64,000 nucleotides of DNA, taken from the NCBI GenBank assembly GCA_009841255.1, contig VXMD01000050.1, positions 17,533 to 81,532 on the forward strand, given 5' to 3'. Below the pieces are notes generated by a model. It had not been told where the DNA came from, searched no databases, and saw only the letters and a list, made by a program, of their open reading frames with translations. Source of the DNA: Candidatus Poribacteria bacterium (GTDB lineage Bacteria; Poribacteria; WGA-4E; WGA-3G). The position numbers and the translations under genes are program-made. This document shows positions 3,601 through 47,454 of this stretch, in pieces (the stretch's first letter is position 1; the number at the start of each line of letters is the position of its first letter).

Positions 3601-4548
3601 TGCTTTCGCTGCAAAGAGGTAGGTGAACAGTAGGATCCCTGTCAAGGCACCGAATCCGATTTTGACGGAGGGGAGTAGGCTGGAAGGCGACACAAAACCC
3701 TCAATAATCCCCGCAACGACGAGTAAGGCAACGCAGCCACCGAGCAGTTGAATCGCTGTTCTCGCGGCGTCCGTCAACGTCCGTTTCCGCGTGAAGTGCG
3801 ATGGGGCGATGAGTGCGTATCCTAATTTCAACCCGGCACCGCCAGCAATGAAAATCGTTGTGAGTTCGATATAACCGTGCGGCGATACAAACGACCAGAG
3901 TGCGAGCGCAACCCCATTGGTATGACACAGACCCGCGACAGCACCGATGGCAATGCCGTTGAGAACTAAAATGTAGGCGGTACCTACCATGAATATGATG
4001 CCGCCAGCAAAGGCTAAAAACGCGACCCGAATGTTGTTCGTCATTACGAAAGATGCGAATAGATTCCGATTTTCTGTTGAGGTATCGTTCCATGCACCGT
4101 CCTCTAATTCTTTGATGTGAGACACGAAGTGTTCAGGGACGAGTTGTTCCGCAAGTTCAGGCGTATTTAGAGCGATCCAGTATGCGGCTGCAAATGAGAG
4201 GGTGAACATCAGGAACGCTACGCCGATGAAGTTGAGGTTTTCACGGAATACTTTCGGGAAACCGAAAAAAAGAAACCGACGAAGTGAGCCACGCTTGAAA
4301 GGGGCGGTTTGGTAGACTGCGGCGTGTGCGCGGGATGTAAGGGCGTTGAGATAGGAGACGCACGGATCTTGTGGGAAATCACGTCGGGCGACCGCTAAAT
4401 CGGACGTAACGCGACGGTATAGATACCCAAGCCGATTGAGTTGATTCGTACTCGCACCGCGTGAACGGTTGAGGAGTGCCTCAAGTTCGTCCCAAGATTT
4501 CTGTTTTTTGGCAATGAATTCTGTTGCGGTCATGGTTAAATTAAACAC
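3595..4548 (-). CDS. SpoIIM-like (DUF95) polytopic membrane protein
   Basis: Multiple hydrophobic helices. Convergent partner in the MoxR/DUF58/RDD cluster. TAA stop. Confidence 0.6.
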   Translation of the reverse strand: MFNLTMTATEFIAKKQKSWDELEALLNRSRGASTNQLNRLGYLYRRVTSDLAVARRDFPQDPCVSYLNALTSRAHAAVYQTAPFKRGSLRRFLFFGFPKVFRENLNFIGVAFLMFTLSFAAAYWIALNTPELAEQLVPEHFVSHIKELEDGAWNDTSTENRNLFASFVMTNNIRVAFLAFAGGIIFMVGTAYILVLNGIAIGAVAGLCHTNGVALALWSFVSPHGYIELTTIFIAGGAGLKLGYALIAPSHFTRKRTLTDAARTAIQLLGGCVALLVVAGIIEGFVSPSSLLPSVKIGFGALTGILLFTYLFAAKAH

Positions 4549-6474: not shown

Positions 6475-7788
6475 TTACTGCCCGAGGCGTTCCAGCATTT
6501 TGCGGGCGTTTTGGTTCTGCGGGTCCAAGCGTAGCACTTCTCGGAATTCACGAATAGCCCGATCTTCCTCGCCGAGTTTGTAGTAAGCGGTTCCCAATGC
6601 CCCATGCGTTAGCGCATTGTCCGGATTGCGTTGAAGTGCTTTTTGAAAGCAAGAGACGGCTTCATCGTACTCCTGTTTCGACAGCAAAATTATGCCGAGG
6701 TGATGCAGAGCACTTTCATCTGAAGGATTCAGTTCAAGGATAATGCGGTATCCGATTGCGGCTCTATCATACATCCTCTTTTGCCAATAAATCTGTGTCA
6801 AGTTTCGGTGGAACTCGATGTTTTCAGGCGCAATCTTAATCGCTTTTTGGCAGTGGCGAATCGCCGCATCAAGGTCTCCAGTTCGCCGGTAGATGACCCC
6901 AAGCCCACCGTAAGCATCGGCGAAATTCGGTTCGAGTTGGATCGCTGTTTGATAGGCGGCACTCGCTTTTTCGATCTTACCCTCATGATAGTAAGCGAGT
7001 CCTAAATTGTAGTGGCTTTGGACTTTTAAATCGGTGGTTTCTGTTGGATTCCGGGGTGTGTTCTCCGTGTCGTGGATAACCGTCAATGTGTTCTCTAAAA
7101 CAGCAATGGCTTCACTATATTGCTTGTTGAGCAGGCGCGCGATTCCGTAATTGAGCCAGAGATGCGGGTCCTTATTAAGCCCCGATATTGCCACCTCCAG
7201 TTCACTGACCGCGCGCTTGAAGTCCCCTTGTTGTAGGTATCGGTTTCCACGTTCAGCGTAGCGTTGTGCTGTTACGCCGAGTTTCAGGACATCCCACCAC
7301 CGTGGATCGTGCATCTGTGTGTATTTTGTTCGTTTGCGTGAGGCTTGCGCATGTTGGGTAGCGGCAGCCGTTTCTCCGAGAATCCTCGCAATTTGTGCCA
7401 TTGCGGCGTGTGCTTCGCTCTGTTCTGGATTGAGTTTCAAGGCGCGTTGCAAGTGGCTTTGCGCCGTTTCAAACTGTTGGGTGGCGAGTGCGAGTTCACC
7501 GAGCCATAAAGAGGCATACGGGTTCCGAGGATCCAATTCGTTGGCGGTTTCGAGGTGTACTTTCGCTTGCTGTAGGTGTCCGAGGCTTCGGAGGGCAGCG
7601 GCATGGTAGATATGAGCGGGTGCATAGTGCGGGTCGAGTTTGATGGCTTCAGCAAGCGTTTGGGCAGCGGCTTGTGGGTTGACTTTATAGGTGGTCAACC
7701 CGAGGTAGTATAACCAGTGGAATTCGGTGGGCGCAATCTCGACGGCACTTCGGTAACACTGAGCGGCTTCCACCTCCCAGCCGTGCAC
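6475..7788 (-). CDS. TPR repeat protein (as called from a GTG start; the TPR motif continues upstream across an in-frame TGA)
   Basis: About ten TPR units. The start codon at 7786-7788 is GTG. The residues just upstream (GQLGNIYF) already fit TPR positions 5-12. Confidence 0.7.
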   Translation of the reverse strand: MHGWEVEAAQCYRSAVEIAPTEFHWLYYLGLTTYKVNPQAAAQTLAEAIKLDPHYAPAHIYHAAALRSLGHLQQAKVHLETANELDPRNPYASLWLGELALATQQFETAQSHLQRALKLNPEQSEAHAAMAQIARILGETAAATQHAQASRKRTKYTQMHDPRWWDVLKLGVTAQRYAERGNRYLQQGDFKRAVSELEVAISGLNKDPHLWLNYGIARLLNKQYSEAIAVLENTLTVIHDTENTPRNPTETTDLKVQSHYNLGLAYYHEGKIEKASAAYQTAIQLEPNFADAYGGLGVIYRRTGDLDAAIRHCQKAIKIAPENIEFHRNLTQIYWQKRMYDRAAIGYRIILELNPSDESALHHLGIILLSKQEYDEAVSCFQKALQRNPDNALTHGALGTAYYKLGEEDRAIREFREVLRLDPQNQNARKMLERLGQ

Positions 7789-7812
7789 GAAATAGATATT
7801 GCCTAACTGTCC

Positions 7813-8064
7813 TCACGCCGTGGCATCTTTAGGAGTTTCAATCAATGCTTTCTGTGCGACTTTAACGGCAGTTAAGAGTCGTTGTTCTTCGACGCGTCCT
7901 ATGTCGCTCGGCTGTGGCACCCAACTCGGCGTGAGCGCAGTGTGCCGATTTCCATCTACACCCACCTGCTGATTGGAAACGTCTGCGGGGGTGGGCGTCC
8001 CGACTTCGCTACAAAGGAGCAGCGCGCAGCACACCAAAAGCGGTGCACAATAGATTCCTTTCAT
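7813..8064 (-). other. signal-peptide-bearing N-terminal fragment in the same frame as the TPR gene, separated by a single TGA at 7813..7815
   Basis: The fragment ends ...KALIETPKDATA-TGA and the next codons read GQLGNIYFVHGW. The TGA sits at the conserved Trp4 position of a TPR motif. Confidence 0.4.
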
Positions 8065-8073
8065 CCATCTCTC

Positions 8074-8805
8074 CTATATGACATACGGTTCGGGGTTGCG
8101 CTCGACCTCTGCCAAAAGCGTATCCACATACGTCTCAATGTGGAACAACCGACACATGGAATCTCCTACCTTTCCTTGTCTCAACTGACTGAGTCCTTCC
8201 CAAAACGCCCCGAGTTCTGGTCGTTTCAGACGGATATATTCCGCCTGTGGATCGTCGGCAAGACGGTTGTTCCAATGGATAACCTCAACGAGATGGATGT
8301 AGGTCGAGGTCTCGTAATCGACACCGATCATGAGAAGTTTAGCGTTCGTCTTATAGGCACGGAACATCGGTGAATGCGTGCCGTAAGTCTTTCCCCACGG
8401 GTAATGATCCCACGGTGATTCGTGGCCTTCGCGGCGACGGTGATCAGACACAAACGCCTTTGCATCTCTCCCGCGAGCGGCAACGGCGTGCGAATAGTGG
8501 TCAGAGCGATAGGTGTCGGGCATCTGTCGAAAAAATTCTGTCAGCCAACCGACTGTGGACGGCGTCTGGTTGACATTCCATGCTGCGACACGCTCTTCCC
8601 GACTCGATAAAAGGCTGAAGGTCGGCATCAGAATCAGTCCTTCCGCCCCGACTGCCGCTTCTAATGCCGTGATGACTGTCCCTGCTCCACCTTCGACAGG
8701 TCCGAGACTCTTGAAAGATGAATGGATAAAGAGTGTATCTCCTTTTTCAATGCCGAGGTCGGTAAAATCTTCGGTGAGTTTTTCGTGGATATAAGGTGTT
8801 TGCAT
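8074..8805 (-). CDS. aminoglycoside N(3)-acetyltransferase family protein (AAC(3)-like)
   Basis: LFIHSSFKSL, GLILMPTFS and LLMIGVDYETSTYIHLVE blocks align with AAC(3) proteins. 243 aa. Confidence 0.7.
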   Translation of the reverse strand: MQTPYIHEKLTEDFTDLGIEKGDTLFIHSSFKSLGPVEGGAGTVITALEAAVGAEGLILMPTFSLLSSREERVAAWNVNQTPSTVGWLTEFFRQMPDTYRSDHYSHAVAARGRDAKAFVSDHRRREGHESPWDHYPWGKTYGTHSPMFRAYKTNAKLLMIGVDYETSTYIHLVEVIHWNNRLADDPQAEYIRLKRPELGAFWEGLSQLRQGKVGDSMCRLFHIETYVDTLLAEVERNPEPYVI

Positions 8806-8827: not shown

Positions 8828-10006
8828 TCAAGGATGCAAGGTTTTACCGTAAACAGCACTATATTTTTGAACCAATTCGACGATTCTTCCTGCGTTTTCC
8901 CTTCGCATCCGCTTCGCGACTCGCAGTGGGGTCTGCCCTTTCCGGTTCTTGACGTTCGGGTTTGCGCCTTTGATGAGCAACGCTTCCAACGCCGATCGTT
9001 GTTTTTCGCCACTCTTTATTGTCGATCGGATCGCCTCAAACAGTGGGGTTTCGCCGTCGTTGTCAAGGGCATCAAGGTCCGCCCCGTTTTCGATGAGCAG
9101 ATTGATGACGTTGAGGAAACCCGCCTTCGCTGCATAATGTAACCCCGTTTTCCCTTTATAATTCTGAATATTAATGTCGGCACCCAGTGCTAACAGTTGC
9201 TGGATTTCGTCTGGATGTTCGCCGTTGTCGCCACGGCAGGCATAGACGAGTGGGGGCCAACTCTGATTTTCTGCGTTTATATCCTTGGACGGGACGCCGT
9301 GCGCCTTGAGGAGCACGCTCATTTCGGAGTCGTCGTCCAAAATGCGCGGGGCTTTACTCGGATCCGCCCCGTTTTCGAGTAACAACTTGGCAATCTCCAC
9401 CCGATCGTACGCGACGGCATAATCGAGGAAACGTTCGCTGTGCGGTTTGATTGTCGCCCCGCGTGAGATGAGCAGGTCCACAATCGCGGGGTTTCCGCCC
9501 ACGATGGCATAGCAGAGCGGTGTCGCCCACGCCGCGTGACGGTGTTCAAAAGTATGGGGTTGCCCTGCCGGTAGCATTACTGCCTGCAGGTATCCACTGT
9601 TGATGGTATCTGGGTCATTATTGAGATGCGCTCGGACGGTATCGTAATCTCTGAGATAGGCGGCGGTATGGATGTCGAGTGTCGCGCCGTGCTGAAACAG
9701 ATAGTCCGCTACGAGATCGCGCCCCTCATACCGTGCGACGCAGTAGGGGGTTATCTCAATCCTGTGCTGGATATGATAGCAACCCGGCAAGTTTATATCG
9801 GCACGGCGTTCGAGGAGGAATTGAACCATCTCCAGTTTGCCCCGATATGCGGCTTCCCACAACATCGTCCGACCGTGTGAACCGACGGTGTGAATCCACG
9901 CCGGATTGTCATCGACCAGTAGTCGGACGGTTTCAAGATCCCCGCGTCCTGCCGCGGCGACAACAATTTTCAGGAAATCACTCTGGTTTCCAGTGAGGTT
10001 TGGCAT
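8828..10006 (-). CDS. ankyrin repeat protein
   Basis: About ten ANK repeats with the G-TPLH..A...G motif. Confidence 0.85.
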   Translation of the reverse strand: MPNLTGNQSDFLKIVVAAAGRGDLETVRLLVDDNPAWIHTVGSHGRTMLWEAAYRGKLEMVQFLLERRADINLPGCYHIQHRIEITPYCVARYEGRDLVADYLFQHGATLDIHTAAYLRDYDTVRAHLNNDPDTINSGYLQAVMLPAGQPHTFEHRHAAWATPLCYAIVGGNPAIVDLLISRGATIKPHSERFLDYAVAYDRVEIAKLLLENGADPSKAPRILDDDSEMSVLLKAHGVPSKDINAENQSWPPLVYACRGDNGEHPDEIQQLLALGADINIQNYKGKTGLHYAAKAGFLNVINLLIENGADLDALDNDGETPLFEAIRSTIKSGEKQRSALEALLIKGANPNVKNRKGQTPLRVAKRMRRENAGRIVELVQKYSAVYGKTLHP

Positions 10007-18104: not shown

Positions 18105-21100
18105 TCAAGTTGTTCTTTTCTTTTCAGATTCCTGCATCAGCTTTTGTGAGATGCGCCCTAAAACCGCAAGACGAAATTCAGGATTTCCATCCGTATCAAT
18201 TTCGTTAGAAGCTTTCTCAATTGCGCGTTCCAATTTATCTGCTTGTTCCTCGGAAGTTGAAGGCAAAATGACAACCTGTTCCTGTTCGAGGTGTTTAGGT
18301 CTCGTAACGCCGACACGAATTAGTTCACCTGCTGGTAATTCAGTATGATCCCATTTTTCGTAAGACACCGCTTCGAAATGCCGAAATTTCCTTGCGGTTT
18401 GAGACAAGTTGATCTCAAATTGAGCTTTGTCCATGTCGGTCCAAGATGCCGGTGGTCTTTTGGTAAGATAGGTTGCTATTGCCTCAAGCCAACTGGTAAA
18501 ATCATATCCACTGCTACAGGTTCGAATTAAAAATCCTTTAAACTCAGTTTCGATTACTATTTCTAATAAGGGCTCAGCTTTGGTGACCAATTCTGTTCGA
18601 AGTTCTTCTTTCTTCGGTGTCAAATTGAAGGCTTTCGCGAGCAATTGCTCAATGAAGTTCAGCAGCACTTCGTAAGCCTGCTCTAACTCGGACAGAGCAT
18701 CTTGCAGTGTAGTGAAGAAATCCGAAACAATCTTTGTATCTGTTGCTGTTTCTGTGCCAAAGGCAGGAAATCCAAGTGCTTCAGGCAATTGATTAAAAAG
18801 GAGTTCGTCAGGTTCACGCGCATTCAGAACAGTTTCCCTTACATTTTTTGATGCGTCACTCAATTCTTGTGTTGTTAGTACATACTTTGGCAGTTGTGCT
18901 ATAGAGTGTATAAGCGGCGTAATGGCCGTCAATAAATCAGAATTTTCAGTTGCGACCGGTTGATCGAGCATCTCCAAAAATTGTGCTAACAGATCCGCGC
19001 GAATACCGACTATCCGAAAACATTTCAGTTCAAATTGTTGAGGCACTTTGAGTAATCTTTCAAAAACTGGCATTGACCAGCCTGGTATAAAAGAGCCGTT
19101 TTCATAAAGGGCGATTTCGGTTTTGTGATGCAGCATCGTGGCACACAAAAGAATAGACAATGGACCATTTCGAACGCCGAGGGGAGGCGACATCAAACGT
19201 TCATAGAGGCGGATAACGGGTTGTCGCTCACCTTCACATTCGCTAAGAAACGTCTCGATCGCTTGCCATGTGTGTACTATTCTACTTTTATCATCTGGAT
19301 GTGGGGGATGGAATCCCCATACACCTCCAACTTCGCGGTGTATCCCCGTGTTCCATAAGAGGGAGCGGTAGATGCTCATTTGAGGAGGATAGCTTTTGAT
19401 GTCAAGATTGTTCTTGTCACCATTTTCAAGCATGGCTTTAATCAAGTGCTTTCTTGCTGTTGTTGCGGCACCAGAAATTTCCCGTCGGTTGATCAATTCA
19501 TTCTGAATAATGGGGGTTTTATCATATATCTCATCACATATTTTTGAGAGGTAAGTATTTCTCGCGCGTTGAGAATTAATGTTTACGGGTTGTCCCTTGT
19601 GGTACCATGTACAAGCCCCTTTACTGTCCTCGCCAAATATTGCTGTTAATCTATCAGATGCTTCTTTCTCCGCTTGTACCTGTTGTGCTGAGAGTTCATC
19701 TCTCGCTACCGCGTCACCATCTAACTCGGGTGTATGTTCGGCTACCCAACGTAAACTAGCGAGTTGACAGACAGCGTCTTGCAGAGTACCAATGGGGTGC
19801 GGAATTGCAATCAATACCTCTTTGCGTTCTATTAGTTTGGTGCTACTCGCCTTTTTACTTAGTTGATTGGCTTCGTGTTCGTTTGTGGGTAGGGCATAAA
19901 GTACAAGTCCATCTGCATCGTCAACAGGTTTTTCTATATCCGTATCGAAGTTTTCGAGGTCGGTGTACTGAACGGCAAAGTATCGCAAGGTGCCAGTTTC
20001 AAATAAGTGCCTTCGTGCGACAAGCGGACGCGTCGGCAAATAACGGGACAGATCAGTGGAGAGAGAACCTTGTGTGTCAATATGCCTTTCTGCTTCTCGG
20101 AGTTTTGCCTCGAGGTCGACGTCACTCCCTTCCCAAATCGCATAAGCCTTATTATAAAGACGGTAGATAGCAATTGAGCGGTCTTGCAACGTAGCAAGTG
20201 ATGTCTCAAATTCATGGGCAAACTTGTCCGTTTTATCATCTAATGCGTAACGGAGCATCGACTCTGAAGCTTTCAAATTTGGAACCGCTTCACCAACGAT
20301 GCCGAGTATCCCAATCGTTTTAATCAGCTTGGCTGACATAGCAGACGAGTCTGACAATCGACCTATTGCCAATTCAGTTTCTGCCCACTTCTTGCTATTG
20401 TGTGAGATATACAGACGGTTTCCCATATTAGTTTTGAGGTAATCGTACAGATCGGCAATTGAGAACAGGGGCAGTGTATCTTTGTTGTAATGTTGATTAA
20501 AAAGAAAGTCTTGGAATCCGTGAGGTTCGCTTGAGCTGAGAAAGGCAAAGAGGGAGCGTTCGTTCTGACCGAATCGCCGGAAGATCGAATCTATAACAAG
20601 TACCACAGTCGGATGGAGTGGAAGACAGTTTCTCAGAAGTTCGCTGAATTCGTCCTCGGTAAGTTGGCTTGGCTTTAGGTCAAATTTAATAGGTAAAGAT
20701 AAATTTTCTTCCTTACCTTCTGGGGTCCGTTCAATAGCGGTGCTAATCAAACGGAGTACCTGCTCCGTAGGTTCTACAAATGCTATATCCTCGAACCTTC
20801 CCTGTATCTTTGCCCACTCTTCCTGTTGTGATTTGGCTAATTTGTTTGCATATTGCTCAAAAGCTTGATGCAGAATCGTCAGCAAAAGCAGTGGAGTTTG
20901 CTGGTTACTTCGTGTAGCGAATTCAGCAAGGGTTTGTAGCACAAATACATCACCTTGTGCAGGATTTTGTGCAGCATACTCAAGAAATTTTCCAAGTTCA
21001 TCAATCACTAATAACAAACCCTGTCCGCCGTTTTTCTCGATAGTGCGCGTTGCAGACTCAAAAAGGTTCGTGATTTCAGAGGCTTGGAGGGACGTGTTAT

Positions 21101-27390: not shown

Positions 27391-28119
27391 TTGCCTACCA
27401 TGCACATCAATACATTCGATTACTCTTTAATCCATATCCCTGCTGGGGCGTTCATAATGGGGACGATTCCAACTGGAATGCGGAAGACGGATCCAGAGGA
27501 GCCGCAACGGAGCGTTCTGCTCGATGCCTATGCCATCGGGACGTCTCAGGTCACAAACGCGCAATACGCGCAGTTTGTTGAGGAGACAGGATACCCGCAA
27601 CCGCTGTTCTGGAACGAGGAACCTTTTAACGCTCCCGATTTTCCGGTCGTCGGTGTGAGTTGGCACGATGTGACAGGTTTTTTGGAATGGCTCAGCGAGC
27701 GTGAAGGTATGGGATATCGCTTGCCGTCGGAGGCGGAGTGGGAGAAGGCTGCGCGTGGCACGGATGCTCGGGAGTATCCGTGGGGAGATGTATGGGATGC
27801 GAGTCGAGCGAATACATCGGAGTCGGGGAATAAGCGGCTGATGCCGGTGGGGAGTTATCCGTCGGGTGTGAGTCCTTACGGGTGCTACGATATGGCGGGC
27901 AACGCTTACGATTGGTGTTTCGACTGGTTTCACATGGAGACGTATAAGTACTCGCCTATTGAGAATCCGTTGGGGGCGAGTGAGGGACGGCGGAAGGTGA
28001 TTCGTGGGGGTTCGTGGATTGCGCGTGGGGAGTTCGCTGCGCGGTGTGCGAACCGTGCGGCGTATGAGCCGATCCGAGGAATTCATAGCGTCGGTTTTCG
28101 GATTGCCATGGACCTTTGA
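27391..28119 (+). CDS. formylglycine-generating enzyme (SUMF1/FGE-sulfatase) family protein
   Basis: GSYP.G.SPYGCYDMAGNAYDWC and RGGSW motifs. TGA stop overlaps the ATG of mutY. Confidence 0.8.
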   Translation: MPTMHINTFDYSLIHIPAGAFIMGTIPTGMRKTDPEEPQRSVLLDAYAIGTSQVTNAQYAQFVEETGYPQPLFWNEEPFNAPDFPVVGVSWHDVTGFLEWLSEREGMGYRLPSEAEWEKAARGTDAREYPWGDVWDASRANTSESGNKRLMPVGSYPSGVSPYGCYDMAGNAYDWCFDWFHMETYKYSPIENPLGASEGRRKVIRGGSWIARGEFAARCANRAAYEPIRGIHSVGFRIAMDL

Positions 28120-31628: not shown

Positions 31629-32711
31629 ATGCTAAAACCGAAACCCAGCATTGACACGATTCAGCCGTATCAGGGGGGTAAACCGATTGAAGAGGTCCGG
31701 CGCGAACTCGGCATTGCCGATATTATCAAGCTGGCGTCCAACGAAAATCCGTTAGGTCCTTCACCGTTGGCGATGCAGGCGATTGCGGAGAGTGTCACAC
31801 AGGTGCATCTGTACCCTGACGGTAACGCCTACTACCTCAAAGCGGATCTCGCGGCGTCCTTCGGGGTTTCTGCTGAACATCTAATTTTAGGGAACGGCTC
31901 GAACGACGTGCTACAACTCGTCGCCGAAGCCTACGTTGCACCGGGGGATGAGGTGATCTATGCGGCGGGTGCATTCGTCGTCTATAGTCTTGTGACGAAG
32001 TTGTGCAGTGCCACAGCAGTCGTCGTGCCGATGGTGGAACATACACACGATCTCTCTGCCATGGCAGCAGCGATTACCGATAAGACGAAGGTTATCTTCG
32101 TGGCGAATCCGAACAACCCTACCGGTACGATGGTCACAGCGGACGAGGCGGCGGCGTTTATGGAACAAGTGCCCGACAATGTGCTGGTCGTTTTTGACGA
32201 AGCCTATTATGAGTACGTCGACCGTCCAGACTACCCACAGACACTCCCTTATGTGCTGGAGGGACGGAACTTCATCATCACCCGAACGTTTTCTAAGATT
32301 TACGGACTTGCTGGGCTGCGCATCGGCTACGGCATCGCGCCTCCGCCGTTGGTTGAGACGTTAAATCGGGTGCGCCAACCCTTCAATTGCAGCTTGGTCG
32401 GACAAGCGGCGGCGCGAGCCGCACTCAAGGATACCGCACATGTTACGAAGAGCCGAGAAGAGAACGCTGTTGGTAAAGCCTTCCTCTACGAGGCGTTTGG
32501 CGATATGGGACTCCGGTATGTCGAAAGTGAGGGCAATTTCATCATGTTGCACCTCGAACGTTCGGGGGCGGAGATCGCTGACGCACTTCTGAAGGAAGGG
32601 GTCATCGTGCGCCCGATTGCGGGCTACGGCTATCCGAATGCGGTGCGCGTAACGATCGGCACACAGCAGGAAAACGAAAGATTCATCAAGGCTTTAAAAG
32701 TGGTCAACTGA
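31629..32711 (+). CDS. hisC: histidinol-phosphate aminotransferase
   Basis: Class II aminotransferase with YPD and TFSKIYGLAGLRIGY PLP-lysine region. Ends TGA TAA. Confidence 0.9.
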   Translation: MLKPKPSIDTIQPYQGGKPIEEVRRELGIADIIKLASNENPLGPSPLAMQAIAESVTQVHLYPDGNAYYLKADLAASFGVSAEHLILGNGSNDVLQLVAEAYVAPGDEVIYAAGAFVVYSLVTKLCSATAVVVPMVEHTHDLSAMAAAITDKTKVIFVANPNNPTGTMVTADEAAAFMEQVPDNVLVVFDEAYYEYVDRPDYPQTLPYVLEGRNFIITRTFSKIYGLAGLRIGYGIAPPPLVETLNRVRQPFNCSLVGQAAARAALKDTAHVTKSREENAVGKAFLYEAFGDMGLRYVESEGNFIMLHLERSGAEIADALLKEGVIVRPIAGYGYPNAVRVTIGTQQENERFIKALKVVN

Positions 32712-43445: not shown

Positions 43446-43487
43446 GTAGGATCTATAACAGAACTTACGCACAAAACGGATATTATA

Positions 43488-43556
43488 GGAGGCAAAGGTT
43501 GGAAGATTGGAAAGTTGGGGTCTCCATCCTTCCTTTCTTCCATCCGTCCATTCCCT
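43488..43556. repeat. GGAAG/CTTCC-rich long imperfect palindrome downstream of the vWA gene
   Basis: GGTTGGAAGATTGGAAAGTTGGGG ... CCATCCTTCCTTTCTTCCATCC. Shares the GTTGGAAG motif with 3338..3420. Confidence 0.45.
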
Positions 43557-43564
43557 AATTCTAT

Positions 43565-45391
43565 TCAGCGTCCTATGGCTTTCAGAATTCTCTGAACCAT
43601 CTGCGCTTTTGGTTGCACTCCCCAGAAACTGTCAACAGCCTTTCCGTCTTGGAATACTATATAATGCGGCGTTGCTCGAATCGGATATTTTTGGAGCGTT
43701 TGTCGGGCATTCTTAATATTCAATTTCGCGACAGCAAACGTATTCCGGTGCTCTGAAGCAATTTGGGCGACAACTGGCGCCATCCGTGCACAGAACGGTC
43801 AGCCATCCTTTACATACTCAAGCAAGATGGGGGCATCTGATCCAAGTACAAGGCTATTAAACGTTGCGTCAGTGACTTCAAATGGGACCCCCGAAGTTTT
43901 ACTGGAAGTGGTAAAACGAATGTTAATGTCGGTGGAATTGCCCGCAGCATCGCTAACTTTTCCCGCAATGACATAGGTGATTGCGTTGCCGAGTTCTTTT
44001 CCTCTGACCAGTTCAAGCGTCCCTTTCTTACCTGAAACTTTGCCGAGCCAGCCCGCATCAACACCGGCGACGGTTCGCAGTGCGATGTTGCCAGTTACGG
44101 TTTCGTTGAAGGTAACTTCGATCCGCTTAAGTGCTTCCGGATCAACGTCCTTATCACCGTTCTTGACGTTTCCGCTGGTAATTTTGGGTGCCTCGGTGTC
44201 TGGAACACGGACGGTATAATTGAGCGTTTCGGATCCATCTGCCCAAGTGATGGTCAAGGCGAGTGGACCTGAGTCGAAGGGACCCGTGATTCGCACCCGT
44301 TTGCCCGTGATTCTCGTCGTTCCTGTGTTGACTGTAACATCCTCTGGTGGATTGTCAAAGGTCAGGATAAGGGTATCGTCGACATCAATTTGTGATCGGA
44401 CCGCTGGATTTGCGCTCACAAAAGCGGCAGGGGTTCTGATGGTATAGTTGAGCGTCTGGGCGCCATCCGCCCAAGTGACGGTCAAGGCGAGTGCTCCGGA
44501 ATCGAAGGGACCCGCGATTTCCACAGTTTTGTCGGTGACCGTAGCCGTTCCTGTGCTGACTGTAACGTCCTCTGGTGGATTGTCGAAAGTCAGGGTAAGG
44601 GTATCGTCAATGGATAGTTTGGAGTTGACTGCTGGATTGGCCCTGATGAAAGCGGCAGGGGTTCTGACGGTATAGTTGAGCGTTTGGGTGCCATCCGCCC
44701 AGGTGACGGTCAGTGTGAGTGCCCCTGGGGCGAAGGGACCTGTAATTGCTACAGTTTTTCCAGCGGGTGTGGCGACACCTGTGCTAACTTTAACGCCTCT
44801 TGGTGGATTGTCGAAAGTCAGTGTGATGGTATCGCTGACAACAATTTTTGAGTTCGTTGCTGGATTTGCACTCACGAAAGCGGCGGGGGTTCTGATGGTA
44901 TAATCGAGCGTTTGGGTGCCGTCTGTCCAAGTAATCGTTAACGTAAGCGGACCCGCATTAAAAGGACCCGTGATTTCCACGGTTTTGTCGGTGACTGTGG
45001 CGGTACCTGTGTTCACTGTAACATCGTCTGGCATGTTATCAAAAGTAAGCGTGATGGTATCGTTCAGCGTCAACTGTGAACCGGTTGCTGGGTTGGCACT
45101 CACGAACATCACAGGTGGAGGGACGGTTTTGCCCACGTGGCTCGCGACGCGTGTCAAATCGAGGATATTGACGGTGCCGTCGCCGTTGACATCCGGGTTC
45201 GGTGTCTGATCTGCGGTGGGTGTCGTGCCGAGATGTGCGGCGACAAGCGTCAGATCGAGGATGTTTATCACGCCGTCGGCGTTGACATCGGAGGCTCTTA
45301 AAGTCTCGAGATCCGTGTCTTGTGTATAGCCTACGGTTAAATGCGTGAGGATTAAACAGGTCGTCAGGCATAAAAAGGCGATTTTTCTCAT
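43565..45391 (-). CDS. dockerin / 4x Ig-like repeat / thioredoxin-fold protein with an in-frame UGA (putative selenocysteine) at the CxxC position
   Basis: Conventional ORFs are 43799..45391 (530 aa) and 43565..43783 (72 aa), in the same frame and separated by one TGA. The junction reads ...FEVTDATFNSLVLGSDAPILLEYVKDG-TGA-PFCARMAPVV..., which aligns to the Trx pattern ...[36 protein letters not shown]. Confidence 0.55.
44220..45131. repeat. four tandem 228-bp coding repeats (Ig-like domains) inside the dockerin protein gene
   Basis: Four consecutive 228-nt units with about 75-80% identity, visible as four parallel plus-strand ORFs of identical length. Confidence 0.8.
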
Positions 45392-45403
45392 CTGTTTTCT
45401 CCT

Positions 45404-46015
45404 TTATTCAGTTTCGTCAATCTCTAAGTTTCCAAGGATGCGTTGCACCAATTCAGCCTTCGGCATGGCTCCTGCAAACCCTGTTACAATTTCTCCATCC
45501 TTGAATACGATATAGGTAGGCGTTCCACGGATGTGATATTCAGCGGTTTTTTCCCGTTGGGTATTTACATCCAACTTGACGAAACTGAATGTCTCGCGAT
45601 ATTCCACTGCGACTTCTGCGACCACCGGTCGCATCCGTATGCAGAATATTCAGGTATCGTCTTTGAATTCTACCACAATCGGCAGTTCAGAACCCAAGAC
45701 GATATCGTCAAACGTTGCATCCGTAACCTCAAACGGGATACCGGATCTCTTACCTAAATGGCTCGCGGCGAGCACCAAATCGAGGATATTGACCGTTCCA
45801 TCGCCATTGACATCCGGGTTCAGGGTCTGATCTGCGGTGGGTGTCGTGCCGAGATGTGCGGCAACGAGCGTCAGATCGAGGATGTTTACGACGCCATCGA
45901 TATTGACATCAGATGCCCGTAGATGTTCAAGGTTTGTCTCTTGTGTGTAGCCTATCGTTAAAAAATGAGTCAGGACTAAACAGGTCGTTAGCAAAAAGAC
46001 CGTAATTTTTTTCAT
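45404..46015 (-). CDS. paralogous dockerin / thioredoxin-fold protein with the same in-frame UGA (putative Sec)
   Basis: ORFs 45650..46015 and 45404..45634 share a frame and are separated by TGA. Junction reads ...IVVEFKDDT-TGA-IFCIRMRPVV. Start set at MKKITVF (ATG 46013-46015), directly after the stop of the upstream gene. Confidence 0.55.
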
Positions 46016-47178: not shown

Positions 47179-47454
47179 TTAATTACGAGAAAAATGAAAA
47201 ACGGGATTCAAAAGGGAGAAAAGAGAGGAAACACAAACGCAGCAAGTTTCAATTCTGCCGTGCTTGGTGTAGCCACTGTTGAACTTGGTCTCTGGTAGGC
47301 GTGATTGCCAGATTAAGAGCCACATTCCAGGTGCGCGTGCGGTATCACCAAATGCGCCTGCGACCAGCGTCAAATCTACGATATTCACAACGTCATCCTC
47401 ATTGACATCCGCACTGTTCTGTCCGGTCTTTCCGAAGTAGTTTGATGCGCCCAC
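47179..47454 (-). pseudogene. remnant of a dockerin-containing gene
   Basis: Fragment DVNEDDVVNIVDLTLVAGAFG matches the dockerin repeats of the two tandem genes. It has no signal peptide and no downstream domains. Confidence 0.3.

Follow-up and report, generated by a model that had tools for sequence, protein, structure and literature searches.

Thioredoxins that carry selenocysteine (Sec, U) in place of the first cysteine of the CxxC motif are an established class. The thioredoxin family (PF00085, UxxC) is an experimentally verified prokaryotic selenoprotein family, with WP_010956703.1 as its representative, and thioredoxin-like UxxC proteins (the "Trx-like 1" group) are among the most abundant selenoproteins in marine metagenomes. 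Exported selenoproteins of the thioredoxin fold have also been predicted, including DsbA-like, DsbG-like and thiol:disulfide interchange proteins. Here we analyze a 64,000-nucleotide (nt) stretch of DNA from Candidatus Poribacteria (contig VXMD01000050.1 of assembly GCA_009841255.1, positions 17,533 to 81,532; hereafter the window), in which two tandem genes on the minus strand, copy B and copy A, each encode a dockerin and a thioredoxin domain interrupted by an in-frame TGA. An earlier note, made from the letters of the sequence, had read them as tandem dockerin UxxC selenoproteins. Our analysis supports this reading: with a probability of about 80%, the UGA of both genes is recoded to Sec.

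The predicted proteins share with thioredoxin UxxC selenoproteins the fold and the Pfam family, the placement of Sec at the N-terminal nucleophile of CxxC, a hairpin resembling a Sec insertion sequence (SECIS) inside the open reading frame (ORF) directly past the UGA, and the existence of Cys homologs. Whereas known Sec-containing thioredoxins are described as small stand-alone proteins of the cytoplasmic type, the Poribacteria proteins add a signal-peptide-like N-terminus and a type I dockerin, and one of the two paralogs further adds repeats that are CopC-like or immunoglobulin (Ig)-like. The active-site dipeptide is I-F, P-F or I-Y, as opposed to the G-P of thioredoxin, and the preceding Trp is usually lost. 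Like the DsbA-like and DsbG-like exported selenoproteins, they are predicted extracytoplasmic thiol-disulfide oxidoreductases with a UxxC motif. Unlike the DsbA, DsbG and Redoxin families, from which they are set apart by profile and by published descriptions, they match PF00085 best, and no selenoprotein of those types has been described with a dockerin or Ig-repeat architecture.

Two further systems provide points of comparison. As in non-cellulosomal cohesin-dockerin systems, the dockerin is of type I, has two calcium-binding repeats and is a module found on many unrelated exported proteins; in contrast to those systems, the cargo would be a redox selenoprotein and not a carbohydrate-active enzyme, and the dockerin is N-terminal. 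The hairpins resemble the Escherichia coli fdhF-type SECIS and the consensus bacterial SECIS (bSECIS) in forming a stem-loop just 3' of the UGA within the ORF, with an early G or GU in the loop; one Poribacteria clade has the loop GGUC, and the spacing of 23-26 nt falls within the accepted 16-37 nt. They differ from the fdhF type in being short, with an upper stem of 4-7 bp, and in matching no Rfam SECIS family.

The recoding mechanism and the catalytic principle are already known. New are the subfamily itself, its Poribacteria lineage and its architecture of a signal peptide and a dockerin, with or without Ig repeats. The searchable literature yielded no prior description of a dockerin-thioredoxin selenoprotein family, and nothing that links dockerins with selenoproteins or describes Poribacteria dockerins. 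The earlier suggestion that such proteins would be unusual holds for the dockerin/Ig architecture and for the lineage; it was overstated for the Sec-thioredoxin part, which belongs to a verified family already known.

The thioredoxin domain extends through the TGA in both genes

The two genes are co-directional, with 12 nt between them. Their boundaries, in-frame TGAs and thioredoxin domains are as follows.

45404 to 46015, minus strand: copy B gene, 203 codons including the UGA; signal-peptide-like N-terminus, dockerin and UxxC thioredoxin
45650 to 45652, minus strand: in-frame TGA of copy B, predicted Sec codon, residue 122, motif U-I-F-C
45437 to 45730, minus strand: thioredoxin domain of copy B, spanning the TGA; PF00085, 68.1 bits, E=7e-19, profile positions 4-101 of 103
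43565 to 45391, minus strand: copy A gene, 608 codons including the UGA; in order, signal-peptide-like N-terminus, dockerin, four CopC/Ig-like repeats, Big_5 and UxxC thioredoxin
43799 to 43801, minus strand: in-frame TGA of copy A, predicted Sec codon, residue 531, motif U-P-F-C
43586 to 43882, minus strand: thioredoxin domain of copy A, spanning the TGA; PF00085, 59.2 bits, E=4e-16, profile positions 3-101 of 103

Copy B starts with an ATG at 46015 and runs for 121 codons to its TGA, which is followed by 81 further in-frame codons and a TAA at 45404-45406. Copy A starts with an ATG at 45391, which has an AGGAG 8 nt upstream, and runs for 530 codons to its TGA, followed by 77 further in-frame codons and a stop TGA at 43565-43567. 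These boundaries agree with the ORFs listed in the earlier note, and the sequences quoted there are all present in the window.

In domain searches, where the in-frame TGA was read as Cys, both copies match PF00085 (cutoff 23.5 bits) over nearly the full length of the profile and through the TGA. Copy B also exceeds the threshold of PF13098 (Thioredoxin_2; 45.6 vs 27 bits), and its best match among the structures of the Protein Data Bank is a thioredoxin (E=1.5e-17). Alignment to solved thioredoxins places the TGA column at the first Cys of WCGPC; the second Cys is kept, and the TPT of both copies aligns with the cis-Pro loop. The TGA thus falls on the nucleophilic Cys of CxxC, as had been proposed. 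The identity of about 45% that had been given for the two copies was too low for the thioredoxin domains, which we measured at 56%. The named NCBIfam thioredoxin equivalogs (TrxA and TrxC) all score below cutoff, the best being TIGR01068 with 66.5 bits vs 96.8, and no dedicated selenoprotein model in the NCBIfam search matched either copy. By these profile scores, copies A and B class as members of the thioredoxin-fold family and not as orthologs of TrxA or TrxC.

The TGA is kept across Poribacteria and has Cys-codon counterparts

Up to its TGA, the 121 aa of copy B show 100% identity to the NCBI entry [quoted passage not shown], and public gene callers report this gene as two products, a Dockerin protein of 121 aa and a Thioredoxin fragment of 73 aa. 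The 666 relatives recovered in a protein search form two classes: proteins with both dockerin and thioredoxin, about 200 aa long and with Cys in the TGA column, and dozens of clusters of 120-121-aa proteins that stop exactly one residue before that column. A scan of one genome per species found the gene pair in about 40 Poribacteria loci (numbered with the prefix L below); so far as that scan showed, the family is limited to Poribacteria and is kept across the phylum. At the DNA level, a regular-expression search identified TGA at this codon in 53 genes, which divide into 35 short ones (type B) and 18 long ones (type A), and TGT or TGC at the same codon in 4 genes. The second, blastp-based scan for Sec/Cys pairs gave 60-61 TGA genes, with the window's own pair counted three times; after removal of repeat counts, about 57 distinct TGA genes in about 40 assemblies remain. 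Conservation on this scale excludes a chance origin of the TGAs.

The UGA aligns to Cys in homologs, and both flanks of the alignment are conserved. These Cys-bearing relatives, which the earlier note had proposed to look for, include positional orthologs: in two further Poribacteria genomes with identical synteny (adh_short, PQQ_2, beta-lactamase, hypothetical, URO-D, B, A, BatA), this codon reads TGC or TGT in copy B and is still TGA in copy A. The Cys-codon copy B in both genomes is a single ORF of 189-202 aa. No ortholog was found that stops at the TGA while having a separate full-length thioredoxin gene. In a neighbour-joining tree (without support values) the Cys forms appear as scattered tips within Sec-bearing clades of both paralogs, which suggests that Sec is ancestral in the family and was replaced by Cys several times.

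Two loci deviate from the common layout. Locus L001 has a third paralog upstream of the pair, a CPPC thioredoxin with TGC at 8695, no hairpin and no dockerin, and with an N-terminus that resembles a lipoprotein signal (…LLTIHITGC). In locus L084 (6667-8053, from a long-read assembly) the type A gene was called as four pieces of 59, 123, 180 and 75 aa; the split suggests frameshift errors or decay in the repeat region. The thioredoxin part of this gene keeps the TGA and the hairpin intact.

The downstream frame is under purifying selection

The codons past the TGA evolve as coding sequence. The median pairwise ratio of nonsynonymous to synonymous substitution rates (dN/dS) of the tail is 0.15 in type B. 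For the first 30 tail codons of type A, in which RNA constraint depresses dS, it is 0.33. Cys is invariant at codon +3, ahead of the first Met past the TGA, in 53/53 genes, which use both TGT and TGC for it. The Met codon lies 6 codons past each TGA, and no ribosome-binding site precedes it. An independent start at this Met cannot explain the invariant xxC codons ahead of it. Purifying selection on the TGA, the frame and the downstream thioredoxin residues, argued earlier from the two copies in the window, holds phylum-wide. The base that follows the UGA is C in 28 genes and A in 25, and never G or U. C and A after UGA are weak termination contexts, as found at E. coli Sec codons.

A constrained hairpin follows each TGA

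Each in-frame TGA is followed by a hairpin within the coding sequence.

45618 to 45632, minus strand: copy B hairpin, GCGACC-GGU-GGUCGC; extended stem 45599-45649
43766 to 43781, minus strand: copy A hairpin, GGCG-CCAGUUGU-CGCC, that is GGCG-C(C-AGUU-G)U-CGCC; extended stem 43750-43796

In both paralogs the hairpin begins 18 nt and its loop 23 nt after the UGA; the hairpins and the spacing quoted in the earlier note are thus present in both copies. The apical loop of copy A is AGUU. Across the family the apical loops are GGU, AGUU or GGUC, with a G always within the first two positions, and the GU of the loop doubles as the Val codon of a conserved P-V-V tripeptide.

Stem pairing is maintained in both gene types. 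In type A, the stem is 100% paired in 18/18 genes; its only variable pair is CG in 13, UG in 2, UA in 2 and AU in 1, and the changes come with amino-acid swaps (A..A, V..A, V..T, E..S) that keep the pairing. The four-fold degenerate third positions of type A codons +7 to +11 have an entropy of 0, compared with 0.67-1.75 bits elsewhere. In the 35 type B orthologs, 87% of the cells of the stem alignment are paired, and all six slid registers are much worse (25-69%). Double compensatory changes are seen at pair 22-34 (AU in 10, CG in 9, GU in 2) and at pair 23-33 (GC in 13, AU in 5, CG in 2). One type B clade (L011-L019 and L039) breaks this stem and forms C(C)UGU-GGUC-ACAG(G) shifted by 3 nt, with a spacing of 26 nt from UGA to loop. 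Distant Cys forms (L034-L036 and the L001 paralog) have no hairpin, with folding energies of 0 to -2.3 kcal/mol vs -2.2 to -10.9; at the tripeptide, distant Cys-codon relatives have P-I-V, P-T-I or P-I-I in place of P-V-V.

The published bSECIS model specifies a loop of 3-9 nt, a stem of at least 4 bp, a spacing of 16-37 nt and a minimum free energy of -7.5 kcal/mol or lower (PMC13188914). The geometry, which also demands a G in the first two loop positions, is matched by 53/53 genes, and 48/53 pass the energy cutoff as well.

TGA is an ordinary stop elsewhere

As the earlier note had stated, TGA behaves as a normal stop elsewhere in the window: 11/47 long ORFs end in it. Its two examples are confirmed as sequence, with a TGA followed by TAA at 32709 and TGAATATG present at 28117 and also at 3990. 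A scan of 1.49 Mb of Poribacteria DNA for Sec/Cys pairs, after filtering for the dominant frame, found no other conserved in-frame TGA and no independent selenoprotein; only the thioredoxin family was left. Before filtering, most of what the scan picked up came from conserved DNA translated in the wrong frame.

One other gene in the window contains an in-frame TGA. This is a TPR-like gene on the minus strand (6475-8073) with a signal-peptide-like start (MKGIYCAPLLVCCALLLCSEVG) and a TGA at 7813-7815. The context of this codon, ALIETPKDATA*GQLGNIYFVHGW, is a spot where TPR repeats often carry Trp, and there is no redox motif nearby. The probable explanation of this TGA is a lesion that turned TGG into TGA, a misassembly or a gene start further downstream.

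Evidence against recoding and alternative explanations

Several observations weigh against the selenoprotein reading. The generic bSECIS criteria are also passed by 97/203 ordinary TGA stops (48%) and by 27/53 shuffled sequences (51%), and we dropped this score as stand-alone evidence. The comparison with SECIS covariance models that the earlier note had proposed was negative: no Rfam SECIS family matched at the gathering threshold on the whole window or at E<=10 on the locus. Rfam models bacterial SECIS elements lineage by lineage, and this negative therefore carries limited weight. The copy A hairpin is short (4 bp plus 1), and its single-sequence folding is not significant (z = -0.3 to -1.0); that of copy B is only modest (z = -1.6 to -2.6). 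Because the generic model, Rfam and the z-scores are weak, the argument that the element is functional is built on its conserved position, its covariation and the freezing of synonymous sites. Among close relatives the Cys control is not clean: the recent Cys convert L085 keeps a relic stem with the altered loop CGAUC, and another recent convert has largely lost the stem. A relic stem in recent Cys converts fits, by analogy, the SECIS relics described in other families (PMC13582414).

The Sec machinery was also sought directly. ARAGORN found no tRNA-Sec in the window or in the Poribacteria loci (2 tRNAs in all), and tblastn searches with E. coli MG1655 SelA, SelB and SelD as queries revealed no selA, selB or selD, either in the window or across 1.49 Mb of flanking DNA from Poribacteria. 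The only matches of these searches were IF-2 (L023) and a fragment at the end of L061. The latter (19459-20019, minus strand; …FSGGKGLHGPQSSGLIVGK…) belongs to a SelA-family, COG1921-like pyridoxal-phosphate enzyme, is cut by the locus end and is not distinguishable from the SelA-like paralogs common in these genomes. Within 10 kb of the pair there is no gene for a cohesin or DsbD/CcdA and no sel gene, and export, cohesin binding and redox function of the products are all inferred. Indirect support for the machinery comes second-hand, from published counts of the SelA, SelB and SelD clusters of orthologous groups in Poribacteria: 2/1/1 in WGA-3G, 2/1/1 in bin70 and 4/1/2 in bin44 (Slaby et al. 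2017, PMC5649159 Table S4). Candidatus Poribacteria WGA-3G is our locus L013, which has both TGA genes. In addition, a 2026 survey predicts Sec-type group 4 hydrogenases for a set of phyla that includes Poribacteria (PMC13582414).

The main rival is recoding of the UGA to Cys by a tRNA(ReC)/SelC*-type tRNA together with SelB and the SECIS, which would make the products ordinary CxxC thioredoxins. Such tRNAs and SECIS-dependent UGA-to-Cys decoding have been described (PMC13582414), and the conserved TGA, the hairpin and the Cys homologs are equally compatible with it. However, tRNA(ReC) is a minority trait that occurs in about 13-17% of the genomes surveyed, where it accompanies canonical tRNA-Sec (PMC13582414), and SelA and SelD, needed for Sec synthesis, are listed in Poribacteria genomes (PMC5649159). 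Under Cys decoding a TGA and a constrained hairpin would also have been kept phylum-wide without obvious benefit, as TGT and TGC replacements arise readily. We regard decoding as Cys as unlikely, and we infer Sec as the inserted residue because SelA, SelB and SelD have been published for Poribacteria.

Explanations that dispense with SECIS-dependent recoding fare worse. If the TGAs were true stops, the locus would encode dockerin-only proteins of 121 and 530 aa and separate small thioredoxin fragments or pseudogene remnants, which is how the gene callers and NCBI annotate it, and the Met shortly past each TGA would offer a start. A fragment beginning at that Met, however, would have neither the CxxC motif nor the first half of the thioredoxin fold and would leave the invariant, synonymously varying Cys codon ahead of an unmarked start; the upstream ORFs would finish in half a thioredoxin domain; the layout would have persisted in about 40 assemblies with a tail under clear constraint; and the Cys-codon positional orthologs are single full-length ORFs. 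We consider true termination very improbable. Least probable of all, to the point of being negligible, is general leakiness of TGA in this lineage, its reassignment (for example, to Trp or Gly, as happens in genetic codes 4 and 25) or an error of sequencing or assembly. The TPR-like gene, with its TGA at a frequent Trp position, is the kind of case such a reading would predict, but nearly a quarter of the long window ORFs stop at TGA, conserved in-frame TGAs in the 1.49 Mb are confined to one catalytic column, and homologs have Cys at that column, never Trp or Gly. The TGA was found independently in about 40 assemblies from different technologies, and sequencing or assembly error is therefore excluded. 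Recoding to Sec, as proposed in the earlier note, remains the favoured reading, supported by the Sec/Cys pairs, the purifying selection, the covariation of the hairpin and the use of TGA as a stop elsewhere.

Domain architecture and genomic surroundings

Upstream of the thioredoxin domain the two genes contain the following modules.

45770 to 45913, minus strand: type I dockerin of copy B; Pfam Dockerin_1, E=4.6e-12, 46.4 bits (cutoff 22.9)
45137 to 45292, minus strand: type I dockerin of copy A; Pfam Dockerin_1, E=8.7e-13, 48.7 bits (cutoff 22.9)
44207 to 45106, minus strand: spacer of copy A, four beta-sandwich (CopC/Ig-like) units of about 76 aa
43907 to 44200, minus strand: Big_5 bacterial Ig-like domain of copy A; Pfam PF13205, E=2.8e-7, 31.7 bits (cutoff 23.6)

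The type I dockerin (PF00404) of each copy contains two DxNxDGxxNxxDL repeats; in copy B these calcium-binding repeats are DVNIDGVVNILDL and DVNGDGTVNILDL. The signal-peptide-like N-terminus is kept across the family (for example, MKQFLSLFLIVCLLSAVSA/QE). The spacer of copy A is a 228-nt tandem repeat (TRF: period 228, 3.6 copies, 44213-45031), the units of which match Pfam CopC with 35 bits (cutoff 23.3). Because the 76-aa units contain no histidine, we read them as Ig-like spacers and not as copper-binding modules. Repeat copy number and spacer length differ among type A genes of different genomes, in which the part N-terminal to the TGA is 315-610 aa long.

Just past the copy A stop, between the convergent copy A and BatA genes, there is a strong, near-perfect palindrome (43485-43558), probably a bidirectional terminator-like hairpin. 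Rfam matches at the locus and in the window, namely mir-H1 on both strands of this palindrome and snoRNAs, were discarded as spurious. A short minus-strand ORF (47179-47454) holds a dockerin-like segment (DVNEDDVVNIVDLTLVAGAFG); it could be a fragment, or the last part of a further gene with a dockerin.

The dockerin module of the two copies recurs, N- or C-terminally, on many other exported Poribacteria proteins, among them an SBP_bac_5 solute-binding protein, an esterase, a WD40 propeller and proteins of the Reeler-like and DUF3108-like kinds. Two kinds of protein with both Cohesin and Dockerin domains occur in Poribacteria (L045 and L066), one of them with VWA/YfbK domains. Judging from these domain matches, Poribacteria genomes carry a non-cellulosomal cohesin-dockerin repertoire (L044, L045, L047, L052, L056, L064 and L066; around position 10001 in each).

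Proposed mechanism and function

We propose that each gene is one uninterrupted coding sequence in which the UGA at the first active-site position would be read as Sec. The hairpin within the ORF, with its loop 23 nt past the UGA and a G or GU in that loop, would act as a bacterial SECIS and recruit SelB carrying Sec-tRNA(Sec). The copy B product would then have 202 residues, comprising a signal peptide, a type I dockerin and a thioredoxin domain with U-I-F-C; that of copy A would have 607 residues, comprising a signal peptide, a dockerin, four CopC/Ig-like repeats, Big_5 and a thioredoxin domain with U-P-F-C. The N-terminal signal-peptide-like sequence would direct export, and the dockerin would tether the proteins to cohesin-bearing partners, where they may act as extracytoplasmic, scaffold-tethered thiol-disulfide oxidoreductases. 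Sec would make the nucleophile more reactive and more tolerant of oxidation than Cys, and in the long paralog the Ig-like spacers would hold the thioredoxin domain off its anchor. From the domain content, we hold the chances of such a cohesin-tethered extracytoplasmic redox role to be about even.

A bolder proposal is that the dockerin sets a Sec redox centre into an extracytoplasmic cohesin-dockerin assembly, which would be a redox counterpart of the cellulosome. This is speculative, and we think it rather unlikely. If true, the assembly would adjoin dockerin-tagged binding proteins, esterases and beta-propellers, Sec would have been present before the duplication that gave rise to A and B, and selenoproteins would for the first time have been shown to form part of a cohesin-dockerin system. 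How much selenium is available would then control a surface function throughout the phylum, such as the remodelling of a disulfide-rich host matrix or resistance to host oxidants. When selenium is scarce, chains that end at the UGA might be released as dockerin-only products that compete for cohesin sites.

Discussion

Our results correct a systematic annotation error, as every public gene set that we examined splits these genes or drops their tail. The roughly 57 genes, among which several likely independent Sec-to-Cys replacements come with a matching gain or loss of the hairpin, offer a clean natural data set for studying the embedding of a SECIS in coding sequence and its decay. The family also supplies concrete peptides to seek in sponge metaproteomes.

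As far as the searchable literature shows, these genes provide the first link between selenoproteins and cohesin-dockerin targeting. The predicted selenoprotein subfamily is kept across Poribacteria, a major uncultured group of sponge symbionts. Its phylum-wide conservation would imply that an exported function of these symbionts relies on selenium.

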